DNA of 60,378 nucleotides, taken from the NCBI GenBank assembly GCA_964527555.1, contig CAZGOG010000007.1, forward strand, positions 1 to 60,378, in the 5' to 3' direction. The position numbers and the translations under genes are program-made. Source of the stretch: an uncultured Planctomycetia bacterium (lineage in GTDB: Bacteria > Omnitrophota > Gorgyraeia > Tantalellales > Tantalellaceae). This document shows, in pieces, positions 1 to 52,571 of this stretch. The notes under the pieces are model-generated. The model had not been told where the DNA came from and searched no databases. It saw only the letters and a list, made by a program, of their open reading frames with translations. Position 1 is the first letter of the stretch. Each line of letters opens with the position of its first letter.

Positions 1-210
1 CGGAAGAACAAACTGCTCTCTGTCGGTGCGTGGGATGAGATGCAGGTTGCCGAAGACTATGAACTGGGGCTTGTATTATGGTTTAATGGTCTTAACGTAC
101 CTAATTTTTATACTCTTACTTCAGAGGACCCGGCATCCACTACGTTCCTTACTTTTGAGGTAAGGACGCTTCAGACCTCAAGGTGGAACAAGGGTTATAT
201 AATAGGACTG
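1..210 (+). other. GT2 (cellulose-synthase-like) catalytic C-terminal motifs in G1
   Basis: VGAWDEMQVAEDYELG matches the GxWDxxxxxED motif; QTSRW (172-186) is the QxxRW motif; hydrophobic TM helices follow. Confidence 0.85.
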
Positions 211-6195: not shown

Positions 6196-6296
6196 TTGAT
6201 AGGTGTGGCGAGCAACCGAAAGGAGGGGATAGTAAGAAAAAAACTAGTATGACCTAACCGAAATAAGAGGTGCAAAAACCTTCCTGCATCTCGGAG

Positions 6297-6350
6297 ATGT
6301 CCTCACCGCCTGAGTCGTAACAAGCTTAGGGGTGGGGACATTCTTTTTCT
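6297..6350 (+). terminator. Intrinsic terminator after G1
   Basis: ATGTCCTCACC-G-CCTGAG / CTTAGG-GGTGGGGACAT stem (two G-U pairs) followed by TCTTTTTCT. Confidence 0.8.
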
Positions 6351-6554: not shown

Positions 6555-9500
6555 ATGGCGGGGGAATATATAAAACAGGGAATTTGTATGGATATACAAA
6601 ATAATAGAAAAAGTCACTTCCATGAAAAAACTTTTCATTATAAGGAAGTTTGCCCATTCTTCTCAAGCACAAAAGAAGATAATTCCAACTATGGCATAGC
6701 GGACTGGAAAAAGCGCAATGCCTTTTTTATTAAATGCGTAAGTATTTTGTTATCAATCATTTTCTTCCACCAGCAGGCCGGCTGGACCCAGGAAGGCAAA
6801 CCTGTCTGGACAGAGATCAAGAGCTATGACGCCTATCACGAAAAACTCGACAACACCAGTATAGACATTCCTTACGATGTCGCAAATACCCAGGAAGCTC
6901 TCGCTAACGGCGGAGATGAAGTCATAATCAATATCCAGGACGCTCATGCATCATTGGCCGCCCAGTACTCAATTGCCAAACTCTTAGATTCACTTGTCGC
7001 GAATTATGACCTGGAATTTATTGCCATAGAAGGCGGAAGCGGATATATCGACACTTCGCTATTAAAGACGTTCCCGGATAAAAAGGTGAGGGATAAAGCA
7101 GCCAATATTCTTATGGAAGAAGGCCATATGAGCGCAGGTGAGTTTTTTGCTGTGACGCATGACGAAAGCGAGATCGATCTCTATGGAGTCGAAGACGACG
7201 CGCTTTATAATGCCAACGTCGAAAGTTTCAGGGCAGTCGCGGGGGACAGGATAGAGCGCGTTGATAATATCAATAAACTGCTTAAGGAGCTTGAGAATAT
7301 AGAGAGGAAAGTTTCTTCGAACGAGCTTTATACTTTCAGTGAAAACTGTGCCCGGCATAGAGATGGCGAGTTTTCCTTCTCAGACCACTGGAAATATATC
7401 GAAAATCTTGCCGAGAACAAAAAAATCAAGTTTAATCCCGAACCGGAACTGGCAAAACTGGTCGAGGCTATAAGACTCGAAAAAACAATAGATTTCTCCA
7501 AAGCCAATACCGAACGAAAGCGATTAATAGACAGCTTGAGCGATATCATCGGGAAAGCGGAACTTGAAGCGCTTGTCAAGAAGTCGCTTGATTTCAAAGA
7601 AAACAGGATATCGCAGGCAACGTTCCACACTTATATCATAGACCTAGCGGCAAAACACAATATTCCCGCCGACGGATACACTAACCTTATAGCCTTTGCC
7701 GAATACGTGGATATTTATGAATCTGTTGACATCGTAAAATTGTACCGCCAGATGGCGAATCTTGAAAAGACGGTTAAGGAAAAGCTTTACCGCACGGGCG
7801 AAGAAAGAGAGTTTTATGCTCTTAAAAGGATGCTGGAGCTCGCAAAAAAACTTTACAGCTTAGAACTTACGAACGATGAATGCGCCGATATAGAATCAGG
7901 CTACAAGGATTTTACCCCCGCCAGATATGCTTCTTTTATCAAGGATGCCTCTTCAAAGTACAGCCTTGCCATTTCCGGAGATTACGATTTGAGTGAAGTA
8001 TTTAATAGTATTGATGAAGCTCTCAACTTTTACCGGGATGCCGAAGCCAGGAATAGCGCCATTCTTGCCAACACCGTCAAAAGGATGCGTTCCAGCGGCA
8101 AGCGCGTTGCGGCGCTGATTACGGGCGGATATCATACGCAGGGCCTTACGGAACTTATGCGCCAGAAGAAGCTTTCGTACCTGGTAGTCATACCGAAGTT
8201 TGAAGACAAGAGAGAAAGGCCGTATATAGCCATCCTTACCAACAGGAAAAAACCCTACGAAAAGGTGCTTGAGACCGGAAAATATCAGCTCGCCATAGAG
8301 GCAATATTCCGGGATAAGATGGATAGGGAAAGTCAAAAAGCGCTTTTTAGTCTTACTTATGACCTTACCATGCGGGATGCAAGTATCAAGCCTGGCGAAC
8401 GCGAAAGAAAAAGACGGATCTGGATAGAAGCATATGAAGCTCGCTATGACATGCTTGTCGAGCTTAAGGGCAAGAGGGACATGGCGAAAAAAATGACGCC
8501 GAATGAGTTTAGAGCGTTTCTTGCGGGAAAAGCGGCTGAAGAAGACTCCCGGAAAGAAGGGGAGAAAACAGCCGCAGAAAAAACAGAAGAGGAGAAGATA
8601 ACGGAGATAGTAGACTTTGTCATCGCGAATGATCCGGACCTGTATAAGTTAATATCGAGGTTGCTGCCAACTGGGAACGAGACTACCGTAAAAATCAGAG
8701 ACGAAATAAGCGTGCGTTTAAGGAGTAAAGGACTGGAACCCACGGAAGACAATATTCTTAAAGTGATCCGCAGGCTTGAGATCCATTATATAGAGAATAC
8801 GACCACGAGCGAACCTGTTATTGAAGTTAAATTCGGCAGGGAAGAACCGGTTCAGTTATCTATTAGAATGTCCGAACTGGCAGGTGAATTCGCTGATTAT
8901 GTTGCTTTTGTAAAAGGAGGGGGCGAGCTTCAGGATTTAGCGTTTACCAGCGAAGACAGAAAGTTTATTGAAGAGAAACTTACGCTTCTTAAAACAGATC
9001 TTCAGGCGCTGGCCGTTTTTGAGGCGGATGATGAGACAAGACAGCTGATACTCCGGCATACGGATCTGGCAATAGGTGCTTTATACAGCGGACTTAACAC
9101 CTATCCTCCGGATATCAGGGAGGAAGTAGAGGATATAACTTTTACTTACGGGAGCAGCCGGCTTATAAAAGATATCGTTATTTCCTGTGACACGTTCGAA
9201 AAAGCCGAAGATCTTGCCATGAAGATCGGTCTTTATGACGGAAAAACTAAAAGAGAATATTCCCATACTGAGATAATGGCGCTTAAGGGGAGTTTTCAGC
9301 TCGACGAAGAGACGGTAGATGAAGATGACGCAAGGCGCCAGTTTGTTGTAGTAAAAGACTGGCAGGTGTCACGAAGAGATTTTCTGAAAGGCGCGGGACT
9401 TGGGATACTGGCGGGTTCGCTATTGGTATCAGACGAAAATACTGCTCTTGCGGAAAAGCCAAACGGTAATTTGCGTATGGGCCAGCCGGAAGTTTTAGCA

Positions 9501-12500
9501 GGGCGGGCAGGTACGTTCAAATATGTGAAACGACCGCTTTATGATAACGGACATGAGCTGGGCGTAGCTATAATTAGGTATTCAGAAAAAGATCCTAAGG
9601 GAGAACTCATTCTTTATAACTCTTATGAAAAGATGCTTAAGGCGCGGGGAGTAGATATGCGTTATCTTCCGCCCGAGCCGCGGACAAAGGTAAATCCCGG
9701 GGTGCTGAAAGAACCTGTCCAGAGGATACTAAGCCTCTTAGAAAGCGAATACCCCACGGAAATGAAGGGAGATGAAGAAGAAAAAGGCATTAAAGGGCTG
9801 AACAAAGTTATAAAAGCCGAGAGGTGGTGCCAGATCTGGGCGGATATATGCAGCGTCCACAGGATGAACGAAGAGCGGGCCAAAGAGCACTTAGAAGGTA
9901 TGTACGGATTTCTGAAGATGGTCATCAAAGAGACCAAAAAGCGCAATGAAAGGCGCCTGAGCGGCTTGAACAAGCGGCATCCCAGGGAAAGAAAAGTAAA
10001 GATGGAGTTCCCGTCTTTGATGGCGGCTATTATGTACGATGTTTTGCCGTTCAGTGAGACGGGTGAAATGAATAACAGATTTCTGGGGCTTCCGGAGATG
10101 CTGATGCTCGCCGATTACCTGCAGTTGGAATTGGAAAAAGATATATGCAAAAATTATATGTACACTATTGCAGGTGTAGAGGAAGGTAAGGTCGAGATAA
10201 GCGAAGAACGAGTGTGGCAGGGCAGAATTGAAAAAACTAAATTCTTTGACATCATCGAAGACCTTACCGACAAAAGATATTACTGGCATATGAGAGTGGC
10301 CATGAAAACAATAAGCGGAGATATATATAAGGAAGGGTACCAGCATAATGGCGACTGGGAAGATTATATAGGACGCCTTGCCGTGTTGGAAGCGTCCAGG
10401 AAGAGTTTCTTCGGGTATAAGGATTCAGAGTTTTATAAAAGGTGGAGGGCAAAAGCGGGGGAGACTTTGGGTGACTATAATAGGAGGATACTCAGGGATA
10501 ACATTGACGAATTAGATATTGTCTACCGGTTTATGATAACTCAGGATCTTTCCCCCGATGAGATGGAGAAGTTAGCGCCGTTTTTGCATGGGCTTGAACC
10601 GGAGCTGGACAATATATTCGGGTCTTATGAAGACGAAAAAGCTCCGGAGCTCATCAGACCATGGCATGGGTCGTATCTCGCGGTGATACTGGACAACTTA
10701 AAGCGGCTTCCCTATAAACCGGACTACGGGCCAATAGTAGAAAGCGAGGTAAGGGAAGTCCGCGCGCTGCTTCATGTCGGCAGGCTCCTAAATGCGGCAA
10801 AAGGTCTGGAAGTGATCGAATTACTTAAGAAAAAGCTGGGTATCGACGAGATACGCAAGAATCTTAACAAAAAGATGGAATTTCTTTTATGGATGGTCAA
10901 GGAACTGCAGCTTTCACAGGATCAGATGCCTGATATATATACCGCCGCGCATTATGTGAAAATCCTCCAGACAATACCGTCACTTATTAAGGAAGGCCCG
11001 GATAAAGGCAAGTATATAAGCACAAAGTATGATGAAGAGGCCTATTATAAAAGAGGCGAGAAGATTGATAAGGAGATTATAAAATATTACGTCGTATATT
11101 ATCCTCCCGAAGGCAGTGAACCCGTCGGCAAGAAAAAGTACAAGACGTTTACGCCGATTGTGGATCAGGATGGCACGAGAGAAGTCCATGTGACGTACGG
11201 CGAAGATACTTATGCCAGAGAGATATGGCGGGTGAATGACGATGCCGCGGAAAGCTTTGACGTAAAAACCGCTGCGATAAACGGTAAGCTGGTAAATAAG
11301 GTCATATACAAAAACGGGCTTCGCATTATCGAGACCGTCGATGATGTGGACACTCCAAAAGGGGGTGTGACAGTCGATGCAAGGTGGTTATACGATGTTT
11401 TCTCAAAGGTATTCCCAAGGCTTGCTACCGAAAAAGTAAAGAAATTCTATGAAAACATAATCGTACCTTTTATAGAGCTGGTATATCCTTTAGCGGCGCT
11501 TTCACTGCTTGCCAAGGTGCAGGGAGTTCCCCTTATGAGCTTTGATTTAGGTTCTTCCATGGCAGTTGCCGCACTTATGGCGGCAGGCGCCGTTTTTGTG
11601 ACTAGTCATATCATAGGCTTATCTACTATCATCAATAAGCTTACCGGTAGAGCCCCGCCGAAGATCGAAAGAGCCTCTCTTATTATCTCCACTTTGATAT
11701 CTTTAGCGCGTGTTTTTATAATCCTTCCAGTTGCGGTAGTCGTGACGAACCTTTGTTTTGGCCGGCCGGATTTAACTATTTTTGTTTATTTGGCTTTAGA
11801 CTGGCTGTTTCATGCAAAGATAAGTTCTTCTGCACCCGGAATAATGAAATGGATAGAAAGACGAACCCGGAAGGACGTGATAAAAGGTGAAGGTAAGGGC
11901 CAGTTGCGAAGGGATTTCATAAAAGAGGTATTAAGCTTTTTGACCGGTGGCGCTTTGATTCCGGCAGGAGATAAAACTGTAGCCGGCGAGTCTCAAGCGG
12001 AAGGCGAGCTTAAAGTTGCGGAAAAACTGCCGGAACCGCCTGAAGAGGTTTTAGAAGGTCTTAAGATGCCTATGATCGATCCCAAAAAAACAGCAGCGTA
12101 CTATATACCGCCGGACAGTAAAACCGGTCGCGTTCTTTTCAGTTCGGATAAGCATAAAATATACGTGCATTTTTATGATGATCTTAAGGATCCTAATTTT
12201 GTGTATATATCGAGCACGGCTAAAAAAGATATGGTTGTAATTGACGGTGTTTACCACCATATTTGGTCCGTTTACAAAGTGAAGGAGAAAAGTACGGAAG
12301 TCGGAGGCATGGTTCATATAGATAAGATGAAGATAATCGGCAAAGCCATAAAGCTGAAATTCGACGGGCACCAGATTATAGACGAAGCTGATCAGCCGAA
12401 AGAAGGCGGAAAGGAGCCTGAAGAAATACCAGAAAAAGCGCCGGAAGTGTCAGGCGAGATTACATTTTCAAGTAAGGGCGAAACGGCTCTTTTAAAAGGA

Positions 12501-15500
12501 TTAGGCGCCGGAGAGACACTTGGAGAGCCTCAACTTCTTGCGGAAAACACAGTTTTACAGCAAGGATGCATTAAATATCCTATATACAGGGAGGGAGCAG
12601 AGGTCGGAGCGGCCATAGTTGATGTTAGCCCCGTGATGGGCGAGCTTCACGAAAGCGTTATCAGCAAAGTTTATTTCAACGAAACAGATAAGCTTATAGA
12701 TTTACGCAGGACTCCTCCCGAGCCCCGTACAAAGATTGATCCGGAAGCCCTGGAAGGTCCGGTAAAAGATATCCTCGCCCTTTTAGAAAGAGAATACCCC
12801 CAAGAGATGACCGGACAAAGGAAAGACGGGACAAGTGTAGAAGGAGCCAAAGCATTAAACGGCTTTGTAGGCATCCATAGGACGGAGAAGCGTCCCGGCT
12901 GGTGCGAGATCTGGGCGAATATATGCAGCGTTCACAGGATGAGGGAAGAAGTAGCTGTAGAACATTTAAAAGGAGTCCGCGTCTTTTTAGAGATGATCAT
13001 CGGGGAACTTAAAAAACGTAATACAAGAAGGGAAGAAGAAGGCAAGAAAAAGATGGAACTTCCGCCCGTGTTGGGTCAAGGCATGTATGGGCTCTTGCCG
13101 CTTGATGAAACAGGGGAGATCAATAACAGATTCCCGGGCCTGCCGGAGATCCTGATGCTTGCTGACTTTTTACAGGTACAGTTGATTAAACATAGATTTG
13201 AGAACACAGACATCCCTGACTCCTTACCCCATCGTATTGTGAGCCCTGAATCATTATTTGATTTGTGGATCAATAAAAAGTGCGAAGGTATTGACACAGG
13301 GATCTTTAGTATTGTTGAAGATCTCTCAGATGGGAAAGATATCATCAGAGCAAGAGCACAAATGAAGATTAAAGGCGCTTATATCTATGACAATATGTAT
13401 CAGCATTATGCGGGGGCTGATAAGATAGGACGGCTGGCTGTTTTTGACGCCGCCATGGAGTGTTTCCCTGGGTATAAAAGATGGAAAGCGCGACCAGGAG
13501 AGTCGCTCTATGATTATTATTACAGGATATGGATGAGAAACAAAGATGACTTGAATATCTTTTATAGATTTATAGTTAACCAGGATATGTCACCTGAGGA
13601 GTTAAAAAGACTTACACCGTTCCTGCGCGACCTGGATCCGCAGCTTGAAGAAATTTTTGGCAGTTACGAAGAGATGCCGCTGGAAGACCTGGGTAAAGAA
13701 TGGCACGGGGCGACTCTTGCTGATTTTTTAGAACAGCATAAAGGGGAAAGGAAGAAGCTTGACGAAAGTATGATGGTCAAAGTACAGGCGGAGGATATCA
13801 GCGGCTTACTCCATACGGATAGACTTCTCAACGCCGCAAGAGGGCTTGGAATAGCAGATGAGGTAAAAAAAGGAGTATCTCCCGGGAAAATACAAAAAGA
13901 ACTGGACAAGAAAATAGCATTTTTAAAAGAGATAGTAAGAGATTTCCAGAAAGCACAAGGGCAGACACCGAGTATATTCACAGCGTCCCATTATGTGAAA
14001 AACCTCCAGACTGTACCTGCGCTTATCCAGGAAGGGGAGTATAAAGACGATAAATACATAAGCATAAAATATAACGAAAGAGACTATTATGATAAAGACA
14101 TAAAAACGGTACAGTATTATGTCTTGTATAACGATGAACTGGGAAAAGAAAGCTTCAAGACATTTACGCCGATGGTGGACCAGGACGGCAGAAGAGAAAT
14201 CCATGTAACGTATGGCGGAGATAGTTATGCCAGAGAGATATGGCGGGTGGATAAGGATGCCGCGGAAAGCTTTGACGTAAAAACGGGCAGAATAAACGGT
14301 AGGCTGATAGAAAGGCTCGAGAATATAAATGGAGTTCGTATTATTGAGCCCGTCAAGGATACGGAATATGTAAAAGAAGGCGTTACAGTTCATACAAGGT
14401 GGCAAAGGGTAGTTGCGACTATTCTTTTAGGGACATTTGGCGTGACTTTGCCCTACGAGGCCGGGGCAGCGGCGATGAACGCGGCAATATTGGCCGCAGA
14501 GGTGCAGACGCAAAGACAGCTGCAGCTTGAGATCGCCGAAGAACTTCCAAAACCCTCACCGGAGCTTCTAAAGGACTTTGAAGATGCTATAGCCAACCCG
14601 AAATCACCGGCCTCTTACTATATCCCGCCCGGCAGCGAGACAGGCCGCGTTCTCTTTAGTGCATTGGACAGGATATATGCGCATTTCTACGATGATCTTA
14701 AGGACCCGAAGTTTATTTATGAAACAAGCATGGCCGAAGATGACCTGCTCGAGATCAACGGTAAACTCCACCATGTATGGTCTGTATATGAAGTTGTGCG
14801 CAAAAGCACTGATTCCGAAGGTAAAGTCCAGATAGACGAAACCAAACTGATAGGCGAGGTTATCAATCTTAAGTTTGACAAGGACACGCATCAGGCTGCC
14901 AGCAAGGGAGATAGATTCGCAAATATAAACACCAGGGAAGTCACTTATAAAACGCCGGACGGCAAAGAGCACAGTGACTATTACAGGTACGTAAAGTACG
15001 TAGGGGATGCCCCCGAAGGATTGAAGGAGTATATTTTTAAACGCAAAAAACTCGATGACGGTAAATTTCATCTCGTGGCGGCGCTTGACCCGAAGAAAGC
15101 GGACGTCACCACCGATGGCGAACTAATCATAAAAGGCGACGAGAAAGACGCCATAGTCAAAGAGTATAAATATGACAAAGATTATACATGGCAGTATGAC
15201 TGCAATTTAAAAACGAAGAACATTTTCGCATCTCCTTACAACAGGGTCGCCACTAAAGCTACCAGCAATGCGATAGTCAAGTTAAAGAGTCTCAGCGGGT
15301 ATGAAGACGCTGATGGATTCGTCCTTCCCTATGACAGAGGCGCGTTTCTTAAAAATGTCCTTGAGGAATACGGGTATTATCCGGACGGCAGCCTCATGTG
15401 GAAGAAAGACCATGTTAATAAACAGTATACACTTTACACAGAATATACCATGTTAGGCAGACTTTGCCGGCTTTCCGGCACCATATATGATTATACCCCG

Positions 15501-18500
15501 GAGACGGACACGAAAGGCGAGGAGCTTAGGAGCTTTAGCGGGTATTCGGAATATGAAACCGAGACGTTTTTTGCTGTTATTAAGGGGAATCCAGGTGTTT
15601 ATTACAGGACGCTCAAGGGGGCAGAAAGAGCTGACGCGCTTTTAGAGGCCAGCCCAAACCCTCAAGCGGGGCGCATGGATATTACAGGGATATTGAAAGA
15701 GTTCGAATATAATGCTGACGGCAGCCTTGCAAAAGTCTGGGATTATAAGTTAGGCGAAGTCGCGGTTTATAAATGGCATAGAAAATTCGGCACCGAGAAA
15801 AAGCTTACCGATATAGGCGGAGATATATACAAGTTTGACGGCAGGAAAAAAGAGACGAGCGGCGAGCCACTGAGGAGTTTTAACGGCATTACGGACAAAA
15901 CCGGAGCCTTTTTTGAAAGAACGGATGAGCCTGACGTTTATTATTGGACGGAACAAGGCAAGCTGAGAGCTAAAGCTCTTGTAAAAGCAAAACCTGACGA
16001 AGCGCATGACTTGATGCTGGTGGAGAAGGTTATAAAGCATTTCAAGGATAGCCAGATAGAAATAGACGGGAAAAACAGGATATTCGAACTTTCAATCCCG
16101 GGCTCTTTAACTAAAGGTGAACGGTTTATCTGTTACGGCGTCGAAGTAGAGGATCCCAAAAGCGGAAAAAAACTCGAAGATTTTGGTGTAAAAGTCGAGG
16201 CTGTCTGGCAGGGCAAGGATGCCCCCATAAGCGGGATTAAAGTGCTTGAATATTATAAACAGAACATGATTCCCGGAAAAGAGAAATACGCGGGTAATTT
16301 CGGTGTGGACGTCTATGTTTTAGAAGACGGCAAGGTTGCAGAAAAGCCGTTCAAGACTTTCAGGAAACTGGGCCCCAATAGCGCTGAAAGGGACCATATT
16401 TCCAAAGTAGTAAATGATTACGCCGATAAATATCCGGAAAATAATCTGGGCCGCGCCAGTGACGAGGAACTTTTGAATGCATTATTCAACGTAGAAGGAT
16501 ACGAGGAAGGCGACGATGCGTTTCTTAGGGATGTTATAGATAGAGCGCTTGAGATGAGAGGCGTATTAGACGGGATATTCAAGCAGAATAATATTAAAGT
16601 CTTAGAACAAGATAAAACCCTCCAAAATGAGATACTTTCGCACATCTTATACTGGACGGCTGCCGAGGATATAGATTTTGATGAGCTCCTTGAAAAACTG
16701 CCGGAGGCAAGCACCATAAAAGGCCTGATGGAGTACATCCACAGGAAACACAAAGACTTTGACAATCTTCTTAAAGAAGAGAGATACGTAATTGTACTGG
16801 ATACTCTCACCGGCTGTGCCAAGACTATGGTTGAGACGGGAAGATCCAAAAAAGACATGGAAGTCGTACTTAGGGTATGGATACGCTATGAGGACGAATC
16901 TGGAACAGGTGCAATGAATGCCGGTGACGTCTACAAAGAAATAGAGTCGGGTACTTCCGCTATACGCAACAGGGAATATGTATGGGATATTGTTAAAATA
17001 GGTCTTGCAGTTACGGGGATACTCTTCCTGGCGGCAGTATTTTTACGCATTTTAAGATCCCTTAATTCTACTAAAAGAATAAGAGCGTTAGGACCACCGG
17101 CAGCCGGCGCTGGAGATGCGGCTGCCCTTGCGGAAGGAGCAGCAGATGCTGGAGAAGATGCTGCAGGTTCCCCTGAGGAAGCAGGACACGGTTTTGCGCC
17201 AAAGACGGTCAGGGTGCCTATGATTATCGCGGGTGCCGCTCTAGTTTTATCGTGGTTTATGTATACCAACGACTGGTCAATGTGGCTGGTCATACCGCTT
17301 GCGATTATTTCACTATATGTACTGGCCAGATCCTACGCACTTCTTCATAACGGAATCAGGGCCAACATGATGGTCTACGGGATGAGTCCCTGGGAGGCGT
17401 TCAACACAGAGCTTTCATTTTCCGTGAAAAGAGGCGGCAGGTATGATACAGATGCTTTCGAAGTGCTTCCTGCCACTACTAGATTTTTCCCGCCGATGTT
17501 TACCCGCGGTATACTTCAAATACTGGACTACATGCTGGAGGTGTTTGATGTCCTTAAAGATTTTAAAGTATCCCAGCTTAGAGATTATGTGATAGACGAG
17601 TATCGCATCCCTATTTCTAAGAAGGGCAGGGTCGCCAAGACGGGGGATTTTGTGGTGGAAAAAGTACTTGATGTTAAGGAAGATGACACGCCGTCAACAT
17701 TTATTTTGGGTAAAACCACACCCGGCGCGGCGATGCAGGAAATCATAAAACGCCATGAAAGCATAAGAAATCACATTTTGGCTTTACCGGCTTTATATCT
17801 ACCGGCTATTTTCGGATACCATCGAATCCTCGTCTTTCTTGGTCTTGGATCCAAAAGAAGCGGCAAAAAACTTTTTAATAGACCCATAAATCCTCCGAAT
17901 AAATGGGCGGTTAAGCTCAAGGTGAAAACAAGGGATGATATAGAGAAAGAAATCAAAGCGAGGCGCAAAACCAGAGATGATAAAGCTCAAGATTTTGTAG
18001 GGGACATAAGCTTTGACACTGAAAAAGCCTTTAAAAAAGCGCATTACGCGCTTAACCCGAGATTTAAGTGGCCGGGATTTAAAGGTCTTGTGAACGTTGA
18101 CTATAGATGGAATCTGTGGGGGGCAGGATTTCTCCTGACGGGAGCTTTTATTGTTTACCATAATGCCATGAAGGTATGGACTTCCGGTGACTGGGGGGGA
18201 TTTGGCATCTCAGCCTGGGTAGTAGCTGCAGTATTTATGCTGCTAAGCGGCATAATCAACAGAAAGCTTATCTGGGATAAAGCAGGTTTTATCGTTCCTT
18301 TCGTCTCCGGGTTAACCGTGCTTATGGTCAACCTCCTGGCGACAAGTGTCATAGGCGGATGGACCGGATTTGGCCTGCCCATGTGGGGTTTCGGTGCTTT
18401 TTTAGTTATTTCCAGTCTCATAGTCGGTTTTAAGATCAAGCGGGGGGTCTGGTATCCTACCGAAGAGAAACAGACAGAAGCTTTAAAAATCTTAGCAAGA

Positions 18501-21500
18501 CAGCTAGGTGATATCATAGAAAAAGTTAAGGAGAAAATCACATACGGCGATGATGTATTAAAAGCTGAACAGTGGAAAGAAGTCTTTAACTTTCCGGTAA
18601 GAGCTCCCTTTGGTGACCCGGAAGACGCTGTGAATATACAGATGGTGGAGATAGACTTTCTTGGGTATTTAGAATACTGCAGGGACTGGACAACATTTTT
18701 TACCACGAGTCCCAATAAAAACAAATATTACTTTTTCTCAAAGTACCATACCCCGCCTTACGATCCACAGTATTTCTTGCCCACTTTCTGGGTTAAAGGC
18801 CCCGCTTTCACGCAACTTAGGACAAACATGCGCAGAGACGGGTCACCGACAGAGTTTATTTCATATGGTCCGGCTGGGGACCTAACGGTTCAAGAGGGAA
18901 GAGGCCTTCCGTCGATTGATACAAGTATACCGGCACTGACAGCGGCAGTCGAAGGAGAAGAGGGGAACGAAGAAAATCTGGGGATGATCGCTCTTATGCC
19001 GGGAACGGAAGAGGAGACCACTGTACAGTTCGGACCTCAGTATAACCTGGCTTACGAACCCATTACGCATGAGACGCCACATAATGGACAGATAGCTTAC
19101 AGGAACAGTTATCAGACCGCCCCCTGGGACAATATCCTTAAGATGCTTGACCAGGCCAAGGCACGCCTTAAAGATATCAAAGAAGCCGGCGAGAGGCGAT
19201 ATGGAGAAGACTTTGACCCGGATAACATGGCGCAATACCGGCAGGCAAGTCAGGATGACAAGAAAAAGATCCTTTATGCTGAGACCAGATCTGTTGACAG
19301 TTTCAAGGGTTTTGGCGGTCCGGGCCCGGAAAGCTCCAGCTATATCAAGTTCATGAAAAGGCATAAACTGACTATTATCTTTATGAGTGCACTCTTCGTT
19401 CTAGGGACGTATGGCGTATATATAGGCAAAAGTGTGCTGATGTCCTGGAACTGGATACCTGATATGACAGGTATGTCTATTGGTATGCATACAGGCTCAG
19501 TCTTTCTTGCGATGGTGACGATATATATGGTCATGATATCTATTGAGAAGCTGATTCTCTTTTTCTCGAAATTCTTCGGGAATCCCGAGGCGATCACGGA
19601 CGAAGATATACTCAGCGTTCCGCCCAGGATCCTGGTGGAACTCATAAGCGAGATAGAAGTAAAGATGAGAAATGAAGGTAGACCCATACCTTCTTATCTT
19701 GCGAATATTAATCAGCTCAGGGTGAATGTAAATAATGCCGGTCCAGTAGGTGATCAAGCACGGGAACAAGTTCGCAATATAATCATGCAGGCATCCCTGG
19801 AGACCGGTAATTGGGCACAGAGATTTCACCAAAATGTTTCCAATTTTAAATGGGGATACAGAAACTTAAGTTTTTCCAGGAAGGCAGCGTTTTTCGTTCC
19901 GTATCTCCTGGCGCTTTTCATCCTTCAGATCGTACACAGAGTATTCGGATTGTATTATTTCATTGCCCGAAAAGGGAGGATCTTAGCCGAGGAGAAACCC
20001 ACCCTATGGTTTTTGAACCGCCTGAGACTGGAAACGCCTCTATTAAAGGTCATAAGTCTTATAAACAGGCCCAGGCATACGGTTATCGGCATACTGGAAG
20101 AGAGAAGATATCTCACTCCGCAGCAGGCTGCGGATCTTAGAGCTGTAAGAGGCAGGTTCACCAACGAAGACGTCTTGGAACATCTTAATATAAACGCGAT
20201 AAATCATATTCTAAAAGACAATTACATAAGCAGGAGGTATGGCTCGCTTCTAAGGACCGGGATCGTGATGGATACGACGTTTGGAGGTACTACTGGGGAT
20301 AATTTGTGGAGGATGGCAAAAAGTGCCGTTGACAGCTACCCCGGGGGAGTGGACGTTTACCTTATATTTGACGATAATGACGCAGTCGGTCTTAAACAGT
20401 TTGAAGATACAGTACAAAAGATCAGAAACGACCCGACTATGGGGGATCGCGTAGCCGACCGTATTTACCGGCTGACATTTCCGGCACCTTTAGCCAACCT
20501 GGAGCTTACGCAGAGATCTCAGCGCATGAAACCTCCCATGAATGTCGAAGCGGTCATGGCGATACAGCATGATTTTGTTTTAAGGCACAGAGAACCGCCG
20601 GAATTTATGGAACTAGTGGACCAGGAAGACGTTTTGGGAGAGCTTAACCTTGTGACTAAGGCATGTATACGTGACATAAGAGAAAGACATGTCCAGGAGC
20701 AGCTCTATCTCGGTTGTACTACACAGGAGGGCTTGAGGTGGGGGATTGACTACGATAAGGCAGTGTATGGAACAGCTATTAGCCGTTTCTTTGGCCGGAT
20801 TTTTGGTAACACTCCGCTTAGCGGTCTTTTCCCGACAGGGCTTGCCGGGGAATACCACGATATGATAGAGGCTCTTACGAGGGAAGCTAATTATCCGAAT
20901 ACCCTGATAGACCTCATTCGCCTAAAGAACACCCCCGGCGCGACGGCTTTACCATGGGCGACGAGTAATAATGCTGATGAAAGGATCAGGTACATACTTT
21001 GGTGTTTCCTTAAGTCGGCCGGTACAAAAAAAGAGTTTATAGAAAAAGAATTCCGAAGACGCAACATGCCGTCAGTCATACAGTCGGAGCTGAGGCAAGT
21101 TCCGATAAAAGACCCTGAGTGGAGCAAATACTCCTATATGGATTACCTTATCTGGCATAGCACTATACAGACCGGGCAGACGCGTCTCGGATTTCTCTTT
21201 CTCGGCGGGACCGGTAACAATTTCGAGTGGGAAGACTTATCCGGGGTTATTCCCAGATTAGATGCCAACCATAACCTTACAGGGTTTGACTTTATTAACT
21301 GGAGACATTATTTTAATTTCCTCCTGAGGCCCCAGAGAGAAGAGATCCAAAGGGAGGAGACCATTCAGCATAATAGAAAGAAAGAAGAAGGTCTTAGTTT
21401 CAGGCCGGATCTCTTGGTCACAAGGCCTTCTGCTATATATCGAGAATGGGTCAATAAGTACATGCCTACGGGCACATGGGACCTTTTTAATATAATCGAG

Positions 21501-24500
21501 GACTCGGAATTGGGATCTCGTATAGCGCTCAGGGGCCAGAAATCGACCAGGCTTGAAGGTCTTTATACCCAGATACTTGAGGATGAGCTTCCCGCGGAAG
21601 GTATTAAATGGTGGCTGCAGAGATCGCGCTGGATATCCGTACAGACTTTTAGTGCCGTTATAAGTCACCGTCCCGCCGCTTTTATGTTCTTTGGCCAGCA
21701 TATCTTTGCCGCTTTGGCCTGGGGTCTTATAGGCACGAAGTTGACTCTTATACCCGGCATAATCGCCGTTCTCATTGCTTTTTATGCTGGAGGATGGTTT
21801 TCCTATTTCGTAGGTATAGGTGTCAGCCGTCTTTTCCGCAGGATAGGCTGGGAAAGAAACGAGCAGTGGCAGACCGACCCGTTAAAGACCATGGGGGGCT
21901 TCTTCTTGGGCTGGTGGCGCTTCCAGAACATGGCATATCTATCCTCCGCTGCGTTTGCGGGCCTTGCTGCGGGTATTACCTTGCTAGTCACGGCTCTTTA
22001 TTTCGGGATTACCATCTTTTCCACTTCTTTCTTTGTCTGCTTAGATGGCGGTATCTTTCAGCTTCTTAGCTATGTCACCAGCACCAATCTGGGTACGATA
22101 CCGACAATGGAGAACTGGCTTATAACCACAATGTTCGGGATTATATTTTTCTTAAACCCTCAAGTGCAGCAGACTCTCATGGGATGGATCGTAGCTTCTA
22201 TCAACGCTCCTGAAGACGAGGAATCAACGCGCCAGCAACTTTGGGCAAGGATAGAAGACAGGGGATTTAGAAAATTGTTTGGTTTTGATAATGAATGGAT
22301 ATTGGATCCTAACAACCCGCCAGCTGCTGCGGTTATACACGGACCGTATCCGCCGATTAATATCGACAAATATCGGGATGAAGGAGCAATTAACCAGCTT
22401 CTTGCCAGGTACCACAGATTTGCCTTAAACGCAATCGAAAGAAATGCCCAGGAGATACAGGACCTTCTTATAGAGTGGACACCGCTTCTTTTGGGGAAAG
22501 ACACGATCCAGGCAATGCTGACGGAGATAGCCCACGCCACCTCCAGAGGCATTAAAGAAGAAGATTTCGTCAAAGACAAAAAAATATATGCATTTTTATT
22601 GAAAGAATGGAAAACTTTTATTAGCGCCAGAGGTGAACATGATTTTTACGAGTTTATTGAAAGAAGAGCAAAAGCGTCAAGAGACGGGAACATAGACCCC
22701 GCTATTAACACGGCTAATATGTTCCTCTTTAACAGCTGGAAAGAGTTTAACGCGGCCAGAAAGAAACAACCCGTAGACCCTGGTAAGATCGGGAGTATTT
22801 ACGTCTATAAAAACGCCATGATGCAGGCTATTACCGAGAGTAAAAGTCTCTGGGGTTATACTCACGGCAGAGTGACTATCGGGCTAAAAGGGGCCCTGAC
22901 GGGACTTGGCATGTTAGCCTTGACGTGGTGGGTTCTAAGCGCTTTATACCTCATACCGGCATTTGTAACGACTACGTTCATAGTGCTGGGTCTAGTAATG
23001 ATTATAGGCTGGATGGTTTCTTTGTTTGTTTCCATTTTTATCGATAACCCCAACTGGAAAGCCGGAAGGTCCCCCCAATCGAAGATCGGCAGGCTGGCCT
23101 ATCACGGCACTATGTGGTTCCTGAGAATACCGCTTATGCTTATATATTTCAGCGGCATGATCGTAGCGGCCGCTTTTGCGATCTATACGGCCCTTTCCGC
23201 ATGGGTAAACGAAGCGTTCTGGCTAAGGGGCCGGCAGAGGATAAGTGTAACTTTTCTGCCGGGGGACAGGCCCACCCTTGCAAATTATATTGATGTAGCC
23301 ATCCTTAAATCCAGAGCCGAAGGCTGGGCATATTTTCTGATATTAGTAGCATTTTTTGTTATATGTGGTCTTCCGGCAGTCAAGGCGTTGGAACAAGAGA
23401 GGGTGAATGCGATCAGAACCGTTACCATAGAACCTATCTGGCAGGAGTTTATTAAAACCCCCAATGAAAATACTGCTAGAAGATTATATGATTTTGCATA
23501 CTGGGATGCGGTAAAGAGAGACAAGGGCGGTGTGGATCTACGCCTTGACTCCAGCGGTCTTATAATTTCGAAACTTGGTCTACGAGAAGAAAAAAAGATG
23601 ACCCCGGATGAAGCCGACACGGTCTTTAAGGGAGCGCTTATATGGATTCAGGCTTACCGTAAGGCATTATATGATGCGGGGGAAGAGAACTCGCTTAACG
23701 CACAATATGCCTTTGAAAGGGTTATTAACGGGTTTGAGACCTTCTGTCAGAGATATGAGATGATGGACCGGTTCGAGAAATATTTCCCAACGGAGGCAAT
23801 AAGCTTACTGGGTGAAGGTTTCACCGCGACGTGCGATCCAGATCCGGGTGAGGTTGGACTGGACGCCACAAAGAAAGAATTATTAATTAAGCCCGATCTT
23901 GAAAAAGACTATATCTGGATATGGCCTGACAGCAAGGCGGGTAATATTTTGGACGTCTATTTTGATCTGCCGCCCGAGATGGTCACCATCGATATGGAAG
24001 GCAAAGAGTTTGTGTTTGAGTTTTTTGTGCCAGAGGATCAAATGAGCGCTTTTACAGGCCGCAGCATTAAAGCTTTTTATGTGGATACTGAAGGGAGAGA
24101 TTGTGATGTTGGCGGAGAGGAAGAGATTATTCAATATGAACCTCTCCCGGAGCATCAGAGAGAGCAGGGGACTTTGGTGAGGGTAAACGTCGCCCCCGAC
24201 AAGCGGTCACCAAGCGGGTTTAATTTTATGGCTAAAAGATTTTTTATACGGATAGACGGGAACCAAAACCGGCCGGTTTCAGGTGAAAGCATAAGAATAA
24301 TAAGTCCAAGAGTGCAGAGTCGGATTTCTCTGTTAGATAGGCTCAACTATGACTGGCAGAATTTAAATTTATTCGGGACAAAAACCGCACCTCCTAGAGG
24401 ACAGATCACGCCGCCTCCTGCGCAAGAGGTAAAGCCGCCTGCAAAACCAACAATAGGATCAAAAAGAGCGCAGAAAGCGCAAAGAACTTCATGGCTTAAG

Positions 24501-27500
24501 AGGATCTCGCATGAAGCGGCCCAAAGGGTGAAAGAGATAAACCAGATGAGAGCTGCCAAGCCAAAAGTCTCAAGAAGGGGATACTCACATGGCGGCAGAA
24601 AACCGTGGGGTAGAACAAGTCTCGATATTATGTTACCGGAGGTACTTATCACCGCGGTAATCGCAATAGTCGTTGCGATTTTAACGCTTGGTGTGGAGAC
24701 AAACCTGGTCATTTACACAGTAGCAGCTATTTTAGTGTTTTCCGCCGCTTTTATGGGGGCTTTATCGCTTGGAGCGGGTATCAAGTATTTAAGGAACAAA
24801 CATCCGGAGGAATTGACGCCGCTTGAAGAGGGCATAAGAAGAAGCATTAAATATTACGCACCTGATGTAGAACTTCAGGAAGAAGAAGCTGAAGAAGAGC
24901 AGCATTTCCAGGCTCTTATAGATCCAGCTAAAGCGCCCCAGTATTATTCCGAGGAGATAGTCTTTAATGCATCCGGCTATACGGGTAATAGTGTCGATGA
25001 TATTAAGGAATACTTGAGGGAAGAAAATGGAACTGCTGTTTCCGTTGAAGGACCTAAGATAGGAGAGATTACCGTTGTCAAGAATTTCGAGGCAGACGCA
25101 CGTATAGCTGCTCAACTTGTAACGTACGGTATAAATATTAAACAACTTATTCAAAAAGACCTGGCCAAAGCGATAAGGATCCGGGGGCCGAACCTATTCC
25201 AGGGTCTGGAAGATAGAGAAATGTCACTTGTCCTTCTCGATAAATCCCCGTCCATATTCGAAGACCATAAGAAGAATAATTTCATCGGAATAAATAGAGT
25301 TCTCTTTGATAAAATCGCCAAAAACACCTCAAAAGAGGTTCTTGAAATTTTACTTATTACAGGTATACTTCACGAGCTAAGGCATGAAGCAGGCGAGGGG
25401 GATGAGGAGAAAATTACAAAAGAAGACGTTAGTCTTATTATATCCTTGGCAGCTCAGAAGGGCGTAACTATAAGATCAATTATTGATGTAATTAACCTGG
25501 TTTCAGGAGAGAGTCTACTTGTTGAAGAGTTAGAGAAGACTCCGTCTATAAATGTCCTAGCCGTTAAGATGATAACGAATGCAGCCAACCGTGCGATTAA
25601 GAATATAGAAGAGAAAGGCTGGATTACAACAACCCATAAAGATGGAATACTTAACCTTCTAAGACAGATAGCTAGAGGCGATGTCCCGTGTGGAACGGTA
25701 TATGATACTTCTCTTTCTTATACCGAACGAATAATGATAGATAGCCTTGGCAGGACTCGGGTAGAAATCAATACAGCACTTTTCTTTAACCACTCAGATA
25801 TGGAACACGAGGCTGATATTGTGCACGAAGTTGTACATTTCTTGCCACATCAAGTTGCCATGATACCTCTAGTAAACCAGCTTCTTCCGCAAGTAATTGG
25901 AATCCAGAATAGTCTTTCCGAGAGAGCTTTTAGCGAAAGAATTAAGGCTGACATAGATTTGCGTGAAATGAATAAACGGTTGTGGGCAATTAAAGTGCAG
26001 GGTGAAGCCGAGGCTCACTCAATTGGATATGAATACTGTAAAAATGCTTTACACCAAGAGAGTATAAAGTTTAAAGATTATTTACTAGAGAAAGCGGATT
26101 ATTTAGAGCAGGTGGCCGTTCGGGGTGATGTGGCAGCAAGGGCTAACCGTTGGCTGGTCCAGCATTTAACGGAAGAAGGCGCATTGGATTCCCGCTTCAA
26201 GCTATGGGTGATGAAAATTGCGCTTCATGAAAATACTATGAACATAATACGACAAATAGCCGAAGCTGAAGGTGTTGACACCTCAGACGAAACTCAGTAT
26301 GAACAGTGGTTACTTGCGTGGGTGAACAATCCAGAGTACGGTGGGATAGAGCCGGAAGGCGTGAAAACAGAAGCGCCAGAAACAGCTGTTAGCAAAAGAA
26401 TTAAGAAAGTTGCCGGTATTGTTATCCAACATATGGAAAAAGACGGGTGGATCGTTTCAAGCCACAAGGAAGAACTAATTGCACTCTTAAAAGAGATTAC
26501 AGAAGAGGGCAAATTCGAACTATTTAATGATCCCGCTCGTGGGATGGTTATGTGGATCGACGAGAAAAGAGACAATATATTGCAGGTCAATACGGCTCTT
26601 ATAGGCATGTATTCAGATCAAGAGATGGAATCAATACTAATACACGAGATGTTTCATCGACTGCCTCATCAGATTAAACGGCGCCGGAGAATTAACGAAA
26701 TCCTCGAGGAGCTAAAACGAAAGAAACCGGCAGCGGATGTTTTCTTCTGGAGAAATGAGGAGGGAAATGAAGTGCGTGAATTACTTAAGAGACTCATCGC
26801 CCTAAGAATACGAAATGAGGTTGAAGCCTGGTCTATTCAACATGAATATAGAAAACATATCGCTGAAAGCCTTGGATTTACCGATGTGAGGGATTACTAC
26901 CGAAAATGTGCGAGGGAAACTACCAGTCCGGGTATAAGAGAAGACTCTAACATTTTTATTAGAACTACACAAGATGACGGGACTTTAGGAGGAGAATTCA
27001 AGTGGATGCTCTTATCAATAATATTGCTACCATTAGGAGCCTCAGTAGCGAGGGGGCTCAGGGAGATGCTTAAAAACACCGCTACAGCTGAAGGTATTCT
27101 TTCTTCTGATGAAAATCAGTTTAAGGCGTGGCTGTTATCATGGATAGATGATGTAAAATACTGTGAAGTAGAACCAGAGGCCACACCAGTGAAGCCTTTG
27201 CCGGCTGAGACGGTAAAACCAACCCAGGAACCGACAGAAAGCGACGTGCGCAAGAGAATGACCCGGATCGCCAGCGAGGTCATCCGGCATATCGAGAAAG
27301 ACGGGTGGATCACTACGGAGTATGCCGGGGATATCGTTGGGGTTCTGCGCGATATCATAGAGAAAGGCGATTTTGAGATATATAACGAGCCGAATGACCC
27401 TTGGGGGCTTAAGGTCTCTCCGGCGAGCCATGGAGCCGGACACGTATTAAAGGCCAATAGGCCTATAATAGCTATGGATTCGGATGAGGAACTTGAAACG

Positions 27501-30373: not shown

Positions 30374-33300
30374 ATGGGAAAAATGGATATGTATAGAAAA
30401 CATATAATATATAAAATTATCTCTGTCGTACTTATCCTCGTGTTCATCCACGAACAGATCGGATGGACCCAGGGAGGCAGGCCCGTCTGGGCTGAGGCCA
30501 GAGAATATGTCTCCACATACCGCGATAAACTGGACACTTCGAATATAGACATACCTTACGATATAGCTGAAAAGCAGGATGTTCTTATTAATGGCACCGG
30601 CGAAATAATAATAAACATCCAGGATGCGCACGCCTCGCTTTCGGCGCAGTACTCCATAGCAAATCTCCTGGACTCACTTGCCACTAATTACGATCTTTCG
30701 CTCATCGCGGTGGAAGGCGCTTCAGGGTATGTTGATACGTCCATACTCAAGACATTTCCCGACAAGGAAAAAAGAGATAAAACCGCCAAGGAGCTTATGG
30801 CCGAAGGACGCATGAGCGCGGGTGAGTTCTTTGCGGTAACGCATGACGAGACGGAAGTGAGTCTTTACGGCGTGGAAGAAAGCGAGCTTTACCGGGCGAA
30901 TCTTGACAGTTTCAGAAGCGTTGCCGCTAACAGGGCCGAAAGGATCGCCAATGTAAATGCGCTCTTAAAAGAACTTGATTCCTTAGGGGAGAAGGTCTTT
31001 TCTAAGGACTTCCGTGATCTTAACGAGAAGTGCCTGCTTCACCGGGAAGGGAAACTTACTTTCACAGGTTACTGGGAGTATATCAAAGACTTCGCCGGGA
31101 AAAAGAAAATCGCAAAACCGGAAGGAAAAGAGCTTGCCAAGCTTCTTGAAGCTGTCGGACTTGAAAAATCCATAAATTTCAGCCGCGCAAATGACGAAAG
31201 ACGCATCCTTATCGATGAGCTTAGCGAAAAGATGGATAAAAGCGGTCTTGAGGAGCTTGTCAAGCGGTCAATCGCTTTCAAGGACCAAAAGATCTCACAG
31301 GGCGAGTTTTACTCGTATCTTCTACGCCTGCCGGAAAAGTATGGCATAGGCCCCGAAAAATACACTAATCTCATAGCCTTTGCCAAATACATAGCCCTTT
31401 ATGAGTCGATAGAGATCTTCAGGCTCTATCATGAGATAGAAGCGTTCGAGGATGGTATTCGCCAGGAGCTTTACCGTACAAGCGATGAGATAGAGCTCTA
31501 CCGGATCATCAAGATGGTGCGCCTTGTTAAGCAGCTGTACAGCATGGAGCTTACCAACGGCGAGTACGAGTATATAAAAACGAATCATAACGGGATCAAT
31601 GCTTCCGGCGTTAGTGCTTTTTTAAGAGATAAATGCAATAAGTATAAAATCGCGATAGAAGGGAGCTATGATCTTTCAAGCATATTTGGCGGCATAGATG
31701 AAGCGCTTTCCTTCTACGAGAAAGCCGAGATGAGAAATGCGGCTATGCTTACCAATACCGTCAGAAGAATGCGCGCTGAAGGCAAGCGCGTCGCGGCACT
31801 GATCACGGGAGGATACCATACCAAGGGTCTTGCTTCCCTTATGCGTGAAAAAGGGCTTTCCTATCTTGTAGTTACCCCAAAATTCGAGGACGGTAAGGAA
31901 AGACCTTACATCGCTATCCTTACCAACAAGAAAAAGGCCTATGAAAAGGTGCTTGAAACCGGCAAATACGAGTTGGCTGCGGAACTGTTTTTCCAGGACG
32001 TGCAAGATACCTCGGATGGGGCAAAGAGGATGGATTTTATTCTGAGGCGCCTTTTCCCGGGTGAAGAGAGAATACCAGATGAATCCGCCCGTATATGGAT
32101 AGAAGCGTATAAGAACACGTATCAAAGGCATGTTGATTCTCTTCCGGAAGAAGACATGGCAAAAAAGATGACACCGGAAGAGTTTGAAAAAGAAATAATG
32201 AAAAGAGCGGAAGGTGAGGTTTCCGTGAAGCAAGCGCCTGAAGAAGAGGCGCCAGCCGTATCGACCGGCGAAAAAGAAACAGAAAAAAAGACGCCCGCAG
32301 AAAAAAGGCCCATGGGAATAAAAGGGCTCATGATAGCTTACTGGGTTTCACTCGGCATAATGGGTTTAAGCATAATAGACGTCATTTGCTGGGTGGAAGG
32401 CGCGGCACCCCTTACAGTTTATTGCGCGTTCAGCATAATGAGCGCGGTCTATGTAGCAGCGCAGGTAATCATTGCGCTAGGCATAGACAAGGCTTTTAGA
32501 AAAATAGGCATCAAAATATATGCAGACGAAATAGCCTGGACGGAGAAAAAGAAGATCGTTGTCACTCCCGCGTTTTATGTTCTTTCGAAACCTATCCAAA
32601 AACTCGTTCTTATCCATGAAAAACTTCACACCTCCGGACACGGCGAAACAGCCGCTTATGCTTTGGCGCCGTTTCTTCTGGTCTTATATATCGCCTTTCC
32701 TTCTCTTTCATGGTTCAAAGAAATGGAACCGTCAAAAATCATCTTAAGAGAAGAAGATAAAGAAGAGGAGTGGCAAATAAGAAAACTTAACCCCAGACTT
32801 GACGCCGAGATCCTCAAGAAAACGCCGCCTTTTAAAAAGCGTTATATCACTATAAGCGATCTTCACGGGATCTACCCGGCCGAGCTCAGGCGTATGCTGA
32901 GGAGCGTGGGATTTATAAGCAGCAAGGATGAGATAATCGCCCGTAACACGGTGGTGGTTATCGGGGGGGATACTATCGACAGGGGACCGGTATCACTGGA
33001 GCTCTATAAGTATGTGAGATATCTGCAGGAAGAAGCGCAAAAAACCGGCTGTGAAGTCATACGTCTTCTGGGCAATCATGAGCAGATGTTATATGACGGT
33101 ATGCGGGGCAATGACGAGTCTTTACTTTTATGGGTATACAATTTGTATCGAAGCGGCGACGAATGGGGGATAGACGCTTTTGATTATTTTTACACCCAGA
33201 AGGCATATTATAGCGCAGACACCGGCCAGGGTAAGGCGGACAAAGAAACCAGCGAGAAATTAGCCGTAAGCGGCTTAAGAGAGAAAATCAGAATGAATAC

Positions 33301-52563: not shown

Positions 52564-52571
52564 GGTGAGTT

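Follow-up and report, generated by a model that had tools for sequence, protein, structure and literature searches.

A conserved N-terminal head domain of Omnitrophota giant proteins as a likely divergent branch of the EreA/ChaN/TIKI superfamily

Our findings concern the N-terminal domain, here called the head, of two giant proteins encoded in a 60,378-nucleotide (nt) stretch of contig CAZGOG010000007.1 (assembly GCA_964527555.1; uncultured Planctomycetia bacterium, assigned by GTDB to Omnitrophota), the whole of which we refer to as the window. Four giant open reading frames (ORFs), G1 to G4, fill the window in tandem, all on the + strand, and the head opens G2 and G3. We consider it likely that the head forms a divergent family within the EreA/ChaN/TIKI fold, absent from Pfam and NCBIfam and not described in two giant-protein preprints, and, with only slightly less assurance, we read the models and the residue spacing as a superfamily fold that probably holds an active hydrolase site.

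The giant proteins of Omnitrophota span 7,000 to more than 100,000 amino acids (aa) and are largely unannotated; according to one giant-protein preprint, domains can generally not be identified in their N-terminal regions, and it asks whether the products work intact or after cleavage. Few modules on these proteins are as widespread as the head, and we found no literature linking Omnitrophota with erythromycin esterases. It would add a highly divergent branch, with a very large helical insertion, to a superfamily that holds both esterases and site-specific endopeptidases, and its named catalytic residues make the cleavage question experimentally testable, thus offering a testable lead on the post-synthesis cutting of giant proteins.

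The head in G2 and G3 and its conservation across Omnitrophota

The features of the two heads, with positions in the window, are:

6555..30092, + strand: G2, giant ORF of 7845 aa, with the head domain at its N-terminus
6720..6770, + strand: G2 N-terminal hydrophobic helix (aa 56-72), AFFIKCVSILLSIIFFH
6771..6809, + strand: G2 conserved juxtamembrane motif QQAGWTQEGKPVW (family consensus QQI.WAQGG.P.W)
6861..7238, + strand: G2 head, N-terminal half of the alpha/beta core (aa 103-228), with strand ends QDAH, IAIEG and LYGVED
6936..6947, + strand: G2 Q128-D129-A130-H131 (NIQDAH), H131 being the proposed general base (compare EreC H50, EreB H46)
7029..7031, + strand: G2 E159 (FIAIEG), 28 residues past H131 at the end of the next strand (compare EreC E78, BcR135 E113, RRSP E3930)
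7239..8009, + strand: G2 all-helical insertion (aa ~229-485), with invariant residues of its own (E309, R321, Y384)
8010..8309, + strand: G2 head, C-terminal half of the core (aa 486-585), comprising the R-bearing helix, strand VAALI, GGYH, strand SYLVVIP and an RPY motif
8049..8054, + strand: G2 R499-N500 (ARNSAILANT), aligned with the Ere (R/K)D..MA motif (compare EreC R261, the proposed oxyanion stabiliser)
8124..8135, + strand: G2 G524-G525-Y526-H527 (ALITGGYH), with H527 (nt 8133-8135) the putative second catalytic His, 28 residues past R499 (compare EreC H289)
8310..8510, + strand: G2 helical C-terminal extension of the head (aa 586-652), weakly conserved, then an E/K-rich linker
30374..52207, + strand: G3, giant ORF of 7277 aa, whose N-terminus carries a head of the G2 type
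30401..30451, + strand: G3 N-terminal hydrophobic helix (aa 10-26)
30545..32185, + strand: G3 head domain (aa 58-604)
30620-30631, + strand: G3 QDAH of NIQDAH (H86 at nt 30629-30631)
30713-30715, + strand: G3 E114 (LIAVEG)
31733-31738, + strand: G3 R454/N455 (MRNAAMLTNT; R454 at nt 31733-31735)
31817-31819, + strand: G3 H482 (ALITGGYH)

Similarity between G2 and G3 is confined to two places, an N-terminal block (G2 aa 54-681 aligned with G3 aa 8-644 over 643 residues; 52% identity, E = 0) and the last ~350 residues (33% identity); in pairwise comparison no match was found between the middles, the ~6,500 residues that lie between the two similar ends. A first-pass annotation of the window had singled out IQDAH, IA(I/V)EG, RN.A(I/M)L.NT and ALITGGYH as common to G2 and G3. 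All four stand where it placed them, and the codons it named, His6945, Glu7029 and His8133, are exact. The span it gave, 6900-8200, encloses the motifs, but the conserved domain is wider, covering G2 aa ~103-585 and, less strongly conserved, continuing to ~652 (nt ~6861-8510, aa 103-652), and ahead of it lie the hydrophobic helix at 6720-6770 and the juxtamembrane motif, which is modelled with low confidence (predicted local distance difference test, pLDDT, 32-46) and is probably disordered. The four motifs co-occur because all lie in one homologous block and, since their sharing by two homologous copies is unsurprising in itself, conservation across the family is the relevant test.

When 1.84 billion cluster representatives (50% identity) were scanned exhaustively with HMMER, 7,825 clusters fell in the head family at E <= 1e-3, of which 2,298 also passed E <= 1e-30. 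In the 150 matches listed, in proteins of up to ~7,800 aa, the head lies nearly always ~25-135 residues from the N-terminus, the exceptions being N-terminally truncated fragments. One database protein, P0052 (7834 aa), is 100% identical over the G2 query and starts 11 codons later. Species-representative genomes (one per species) hold 229 head loci, all in Omnitrophota metagenome-assembled genomes (MAGs), with at least two loci on several contigs; some of these MAGs are labelled only "uncultured Planctomycetia", others as Omnitrophota or as Candidatus genera. Close relatives are likewise almost all annotated as Omnitrophota, apart from unnamed entries and one Candidatus Vogelbacteria label, and carry no Pfam domain over the head region. 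At 72 of 78 head loci the ORF extends beyond the 4-kb flank. The head family is specific to Omnitrophota and almost always opens very long ORFs.

Residue conservation was assessed in 130 representatives, one per 50%-identity cluster, of which 127 cover the region completely. D129, H131, E159, R499 and H527 are invariant in all 127, the spacing from H131 to E159 is 28 in 127/127, and that from R499 to H527 is 28 in 130/130. Further invariant or nearly invariant residues are Q128, Q137, D166, E196, E213, Y218, E309, R321, Y384 and Y493, followed in the C-terminal half by T507, M511, G524/G525 and R555-P556-Y557.

A few family members depart from the usual architecture. Locus L053 encodes at 346-3414 a "mini" member of 1023 aa, made up of the N-terminal helix, the head, ~400 residues and the tail motif described below (ending in LEREINRYREILMAV and the stop codon); a second, long ORF bearing a head follows it immediately. 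The head can thus also occur on proteins that are not giant. In L033 (3501-9479) a single in-frame TAA stands between a 598-aa head ORF and its continuation in that frame, which runs for at least 1394 aa, and in L019, L027 and L046 the continuation past the head ORF lies in an overlapping frame. These split ORFs could be natural splits, cases of recoding or MAG assembly errors.

Fold models and known relatives

Two structural models, which share homologue sequences, were compared with known structures. The first, an AlphaFold2 model of the full domain based on 47 homologues (pLDDT 84.6, predicted template modelling score 0.80), consists of an alpha/beta core split by the long all-helical insertion. 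Among its best 50 Foldseek matches in the Protein Data Bank (PDB), EreC 6xcs came first (E 0.017, probability 0.90), followed by 6xcq, with BcR135 3b55 and 2rad also near the top; the remainder were mostly low-probability, long helical or coiled-coil proteins, which are probably matches to the insertion. The second model, built to remove this effect of the insertion, joins G2 aa 100-228 to aa 478-585 on an alignment of natural full-length homologues (pLDDT 82.6). Its top match was HopBA1 5t09 (E 9.8e-4, probability 1.00, template modelling (TM) scores 0.39/0.42, identity 15%), and next came 3b55 (probability 0.93), 2rad (0.87) and EreC 6xcs (0.94, TMq 0.44). Among the best 50 matches listed for this core, only EreC, BcR135/2rad and HopBA1 reached a probability of at least 0.87; all other folds, including KaiC, thymidylate-kinase and cyclodipeptide-synthase structures, stood at 0.66 or below. 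The first-pass annotation had assigned the domain to the EreA/ChaN/Tiki superfamily from its motifs and had named an unrelated fold, or residues that do not cluster, as what would overturn this; as regards the fold, the superfamily named beforehand topped both searches. A search of the BFVD fold database returned only unnamed or generic nucleotide-binding folds and was uninformative.

In published work EreC, BcR135/136, ChaN, HopBA1, PMT and RRSP form one fold and superfamily; among its solved members are esterases, an endopeptidase that needs no metal, a haem-binding protein and scaffolds without activity. The active site of EreC comprises H50 as the base, E47 orienting H50, E78 and H289 holding the water, and R261 stabilising the transition state; those of RRSP and BcR135 are E3900/H3902/E3930/H4030 and H85/E113, respectively. 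In both models of the head H131, E159, E213 and H527 come immediately after beta-strands, and the helix that precedes the last of these strands carries R499. H131 comes directly after strand VIINI, with the Gly and Glu of the classical motif replaced, and sequence comparison would place Q128 as EreC E47 and D129 as RRSP E3900. The spacing of the corresponding residues, H to E and R to H, is as follows:

G2 head: H to E 28; R to H 28
EreC: H to E 28; R to H 28
BcR135: H to E 28
RRSP: H to E 28
120 Ere proteins (EreB-like): H to E 28 in 120/120; R to H 27-29 in 119/120 and 26 in one
YbaP (TraB family): H to E 26; R to H 24

The Ere enzymes, EreA-D with BcR135 and BcR136 (PF05139; 6XCQ/6XCS, 3B55/2RAD, 2QGM), are the best or near-best structural matches of the head. 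They share with it the base His followed after 28 residues by Glu, a (R/K)(D/N)..(M/L)A motif on the helix before the strand of the last His, which in EreC likewise stands 28 residues after the R, and a helical module (the Ere "minor lobe") that interrupts the core after its third strand and before the R-helix. Local sequences are alike in two places (EreC YLVERHDFNAIGLECG and G2 SLVANYDLEFIAIEGG; EreC RDSYMAGVVDRM and G2 RNSAILANTVKRM). However, GE..H in Ere is replaced by IQDAH in the head and AHN.H by GG.H, and Ere enzymes are soluble proteins of ~410 aa, whereas the head is predicted to be membrane-tethered and is fused to proteins of several thousand residues. The position of the head's insertion suggests that it occupies the topological place of the minor lobe, though at ~260-340 aa it exceeds the Ere four-helix bundle of ~110-180 aa. 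Part of the insertion (profile positions 184-246, consensus LH..G...F..YW) gave a weak match to the EF-hand pair of troponin C (E 0.007), probably a helix-loop-helix coincidence, the canonical Ca-binding Asp ladder being absent; like a short-chain dehydrogenase match (E 0.014), it looks spurious.

HopBA1, a type III effector of Pseudomonas syringae (5T09), shows the fold reduced to its core, with no minor lobe, and headed the core-only search; unlike the head, it is a secreted effector of 217 residues without demonstrated enzymatic activity. RRSP (DUF5 of the Vibrio MARTX toxin) and the C1/C2 region of PMT resemble the head in their TIKI fold with a site of two His and two Glu, the spacing of 28 from His to Glu, an acid placed two positions ahead of the first His (E3900-x-H3902 in RRSP, D129-x-H131 in the head) and a place within a very large multidomain protein beside a membrane-localising element. 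RRSP is nevertheless an internal effector: a separate cysteine protease domain sets it free, and its target is host Ras, which it cleaves. The head, by contrast, is an invariant N-terminal module, and neither RRSP nor PMT was among the best 50 Foldseek matches listed for each model.

The TIKI/TraB/PrgY/GumN proteins (PF01963), such as E. coli YbaP, show the same motif order as the head (G..H, E, RN..(M/W), G..H) and include membrane-tethered members. Tiki and PrgY trim the N-termini of secreted peptides and proteins. YbaP differs in its spacings (26/24 against 28/28), hhalign pairs the head with its second pseudo-repeat, and the head has no Pfam match to this family. The ChaN haem-binding lipoproteins (PF04187, 2G5G), which according to the literature have the same fold, were the only superfamily family touched by hmmscan (below threshold); ChaN itself is a small haem-binding lipoprotein unlike the head, and 2G5G was not among the best 50 Foldseek matches listed.

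Candidate mechanism and competing readings

Several results weigh against this assignment. The best Foldseek E value is 9.8e-4 but the TM-scores are only 0.39-0.44, all below 0.5, and the support for the fold is therefore moderate; moreover, the core-only model is an artificial deletion construct. Pfam gave no significant match for the G2 and G3 heads, for the 47 aligned members or for ten insertion-deleted cores, a search of NCBIfam with the head was negative, and sequence searches of the PDB (phmmer, hmmsearch) returned nothing significant. In the family-profile tests of PF05139 and PF01963, the head has no Pfam match to either. On the favourable side, sub-threshold matches to PF04187 ("Tiki superfamily, ChaN") occurred in 3/47 members (best E 0.068, none at the gathering score). 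Weak matches to DUF5682 occurred in 3/47 members and 4/10 cores, and to DUF5694 once; these two may be relatives of the Tiki clan, but no paper was found that mentions them and YbaP gives no cross-match to them. Comparison by hhalign with a profile of 120 Pfam-verified (PF05139), EreB-like Ere proteins, the EreB seed of which was checked by its 99% match to a PF05139 cluster and by its EreC/BcR matches in the PDB, was not significant (P 0.05-0.25), nor was comparison with a low-diversity TraB/YbaP profile (P 0.005-0.03). The unconstrained alignment of the core with the Ere profile nonetheless fell in the expected register, pairing E159 with E74, LYGVED with FLGIDIP and RN with (R/K)D. The convergence of the catalytic residues in one pocket is inferred from their strand-end positions and from homology. 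The superfamily includes non-enzymes (ChaN, PMT C1/C2), so that the fold alone is no proof of catalysis; the evidence fits a protease as well as an esterase, and action in trans as well as in cis; and the side of the membrane on which the head lies is ambiguous. The earlier proposal of a conserved catalytic domain common to the family holds as the best reading through the fold searches and the residue spacing, while sequence and profile methods lend it no significant match.

That the head is catalytic appears reasonably probable to us. If the head works as EreC and RRSP do, H131, held in position by Q128 and D129, would act with E159 to activate a water, and H527 would help to hold that water; the oxyanion that arises when an ester or peptide carbonyl is attacked would be stabilised by R499. 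The insertion in the minor-lobe position, with its own invariant E309, R321 and Y384, probably contributes a substrate pocket or lid. The head, predicted to be tethered to the membrane by the N-terminal helix, stands before proteins with unrelated middles. We suggest, speculatively, that its substrate is its own giant polypeptide or the neighbours of that polypeptide, which would make it a maturation protease separating the head from its cargo.

The topology of the chain bears on this suggestion. Flanking charges of the N-terminal helix (mean K+R 3.2 before and 0.65 after, in 96 representatives) predict that it is an N-in anchor and that what follows, the head included, is outside the cytoplasm, and the head, which begins ~55 residues past this single hydrophobic helix, would therefore be tethered to the membrane. 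A cleavable signal peptide was considered for the helix and set aside, as no A-x-A-type site follows it. Across representatives P0052-P0180 the first hydrophobic segment after the head (9366-9455 in G2, 32333-32390 in G3) also has an N-in bias, with K+R higher on its N-terminal side in 48 proteins against 13, whereas later hydrophobic segments are balanced (171 against 159). In G2 this segment (aa 938-967, window 9366-9455), SRRDFLKGAGLGILAGSLLVSDENTALA followed by EKP, is Tat-like (twin-arginine translocation) with an A-x-A site. In P0124 a Tat-like motif with a lipobox (SRRSFLKG...LLGC) lies at aa 657, directly past the head, and P0055, P0071 and P0155 have lipoboxes in the first post-head segment. 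These sequences hint that the segment often resembles a fresh Sec, Tat or lipoprotein signal. Two successive N-in signals within a single polypeptide do not readily give a consistent topology, except where a cut falls between them or the head lies in the cytoplasm. A cut after the head would explain the N-in look of both and would expose a Sec-, Tat- or lipoprotein-type signal such as that of G2, and in this sense the post-head signals hint indirectly at a processing role. A second internal twin-arginine-like sequence, LRRDFIKEVLSFLTGGALIPAG, occurs in G2 at aa ~1785-1810. A bolder proposal, which we regard as rather unlikely, is that head and tail form a constant chassis around exchangeable giant cargo, with the head acting in cis as the maturation protease of a giant ORF that is a polyprotein whose pieces are exported separately.

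The strongest alternative retains the same fold and catalysis and differs from our main reading in substrate only, such that our confidence in the two overlaps. Here the head would act in trans as an esterase- or lipase-like hydrolase of a non-protein substrate, for instance an ester of the envelope or an acylated polymer, whether the cell's own or that of prey, with no role in processing, which we hold to be possible but tentative. The closest structural matches of known chemistry are indeed esterases (EreC and BcR135/136, the latter hydrolysing p-nitrophenyl butyrate), the spacing from His to Glu equals that of all 120 Ere proteins and not the 26/24 of the TraB-type YbaP, and Omnitrophota giant proteins have been proposed to degrade prey cell walls. 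However, this reading offers no ready reason for a generic esterase to stand beside an anchor helix at the extreme N-terminus of thousands of proteins with unrelated cargo, and the signal-like segment after the head would be left unexplained.

Quite unlikely, in our estimation, is a non-catalytic domain of the same fold, either a ChaN-like binder of haem or another ligand or a module for anchoring or secretion targeting, in which the conserved residues would bind a cofactor or partner. ChaN binds haem, PMT C1/C2 is an inactive scaffold of the superfamily fold, the ChaN family PF04187 is the only recurrent superfamily hint from Pfam, and a constant N-terminal head paired with a constant C-terminal tail motif resembles a targeting module. 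These PF04187 matches are nevertheless sub-threshold, and all residues found important by mutagenesis in Ere and RRSP are invariant in the head, whereas the inactive PMT has lost them. A chance resemblance, in which an unrelated Rossmann-like or P-loop-like alpha/beta domain mimics the H/E/R/H motif, would accord with the low TM-scores, the non-significance of every hidden Markov model (HMM) and HH comparison, the KaiC, thymidylate-kinase and cyclodipeptide-synthase matches and the uninformative BFVD search, but we judge it improbable given that a family named in advance led two fold searches (probability 0.87-1.00 against 0.66 or less for the rest of the matches listed), that the H-28-E spacing is identical in 120/120 Ere proteins, that free hhalign fell in register at three landmarks, and that P-loop matches had low Foldseek probability with no Walker A motif in the first-pass motifs or in the head sequences read.

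C-terminal tails and the remainder of the window

The extreme C-termini of head-bearing giants carry a tail motif of two types. Type 1, LE.E(V/I)R.YY.R...E(I/V)L(V/I)(K/R)A before the stop codon, occurs in G2 (30030-30089) and G3 (52145-52204), and type 2, (E/D)LR.E(I/L)E.YE.(V/I)LI.A before the stop codon, in G1 (6133-6192). These tails end the upstream ORF in ~20/55 related loci (among them L007, L019, L021, L026, L035, L036, L040-L042, L046, L053 and L066) and also end most of the longest representatives. As these tails recur on head-bearing proteins, head and tail represent two constant ends around variable cargo.

The two remaining ORFs of the window are:

1-6192, + strand: G1, giant ORF with its 5' end cut off
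52569-60377 (to the window end), + strand: G4, giant ORF with its 3' end cut off

G2 and G3 have 20 and 14 hydrophobic segments, respectively. Pfam domains in G3 are PEP-utilizers (aa 1889-2312), HEAT repeats, class-II F_bP_aldolase (aa ~6186-6324) and Metallophos, and domain scans of both proteins found no SecA or C39 domain. West-Roberts et al. describe in a preprint Omnitrophota giant membrane proteins with glycolysis-type domains ("Archaeovorin"-like). G2 and G3 correspond to this description in length, in their many transmembrane helices and in their Omnitrophota origin, and G3 also in its glycolysis-type and pyruvate-phosphate-dikinase-type domains.

Directly past the head of G3, amid hydrophobic segments, lies an HExxH-type motif (LIHEKLHTSGHGE; aa ~740-750, window ~32590-32620), with a calcineurin-like phosphoesterase domain downstream of it (aa 825-943, window 32846-33202). 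The sole Pfam signal in the 7845 residues of G2 is a sub-threshold match to SprT-like, a zinc metalloprotease family (aa ~6613-6711, window ~26391-26687; E 4e-4, 20.6 bits against a cut-off of 25.6). G4 is without a head and has a lipoprotein-like signal (VFTFVIAGLFLFNSAC) at its start, and its aa 398-816 align with G1 aa 827-1178 at 24% identity over 426 columns.

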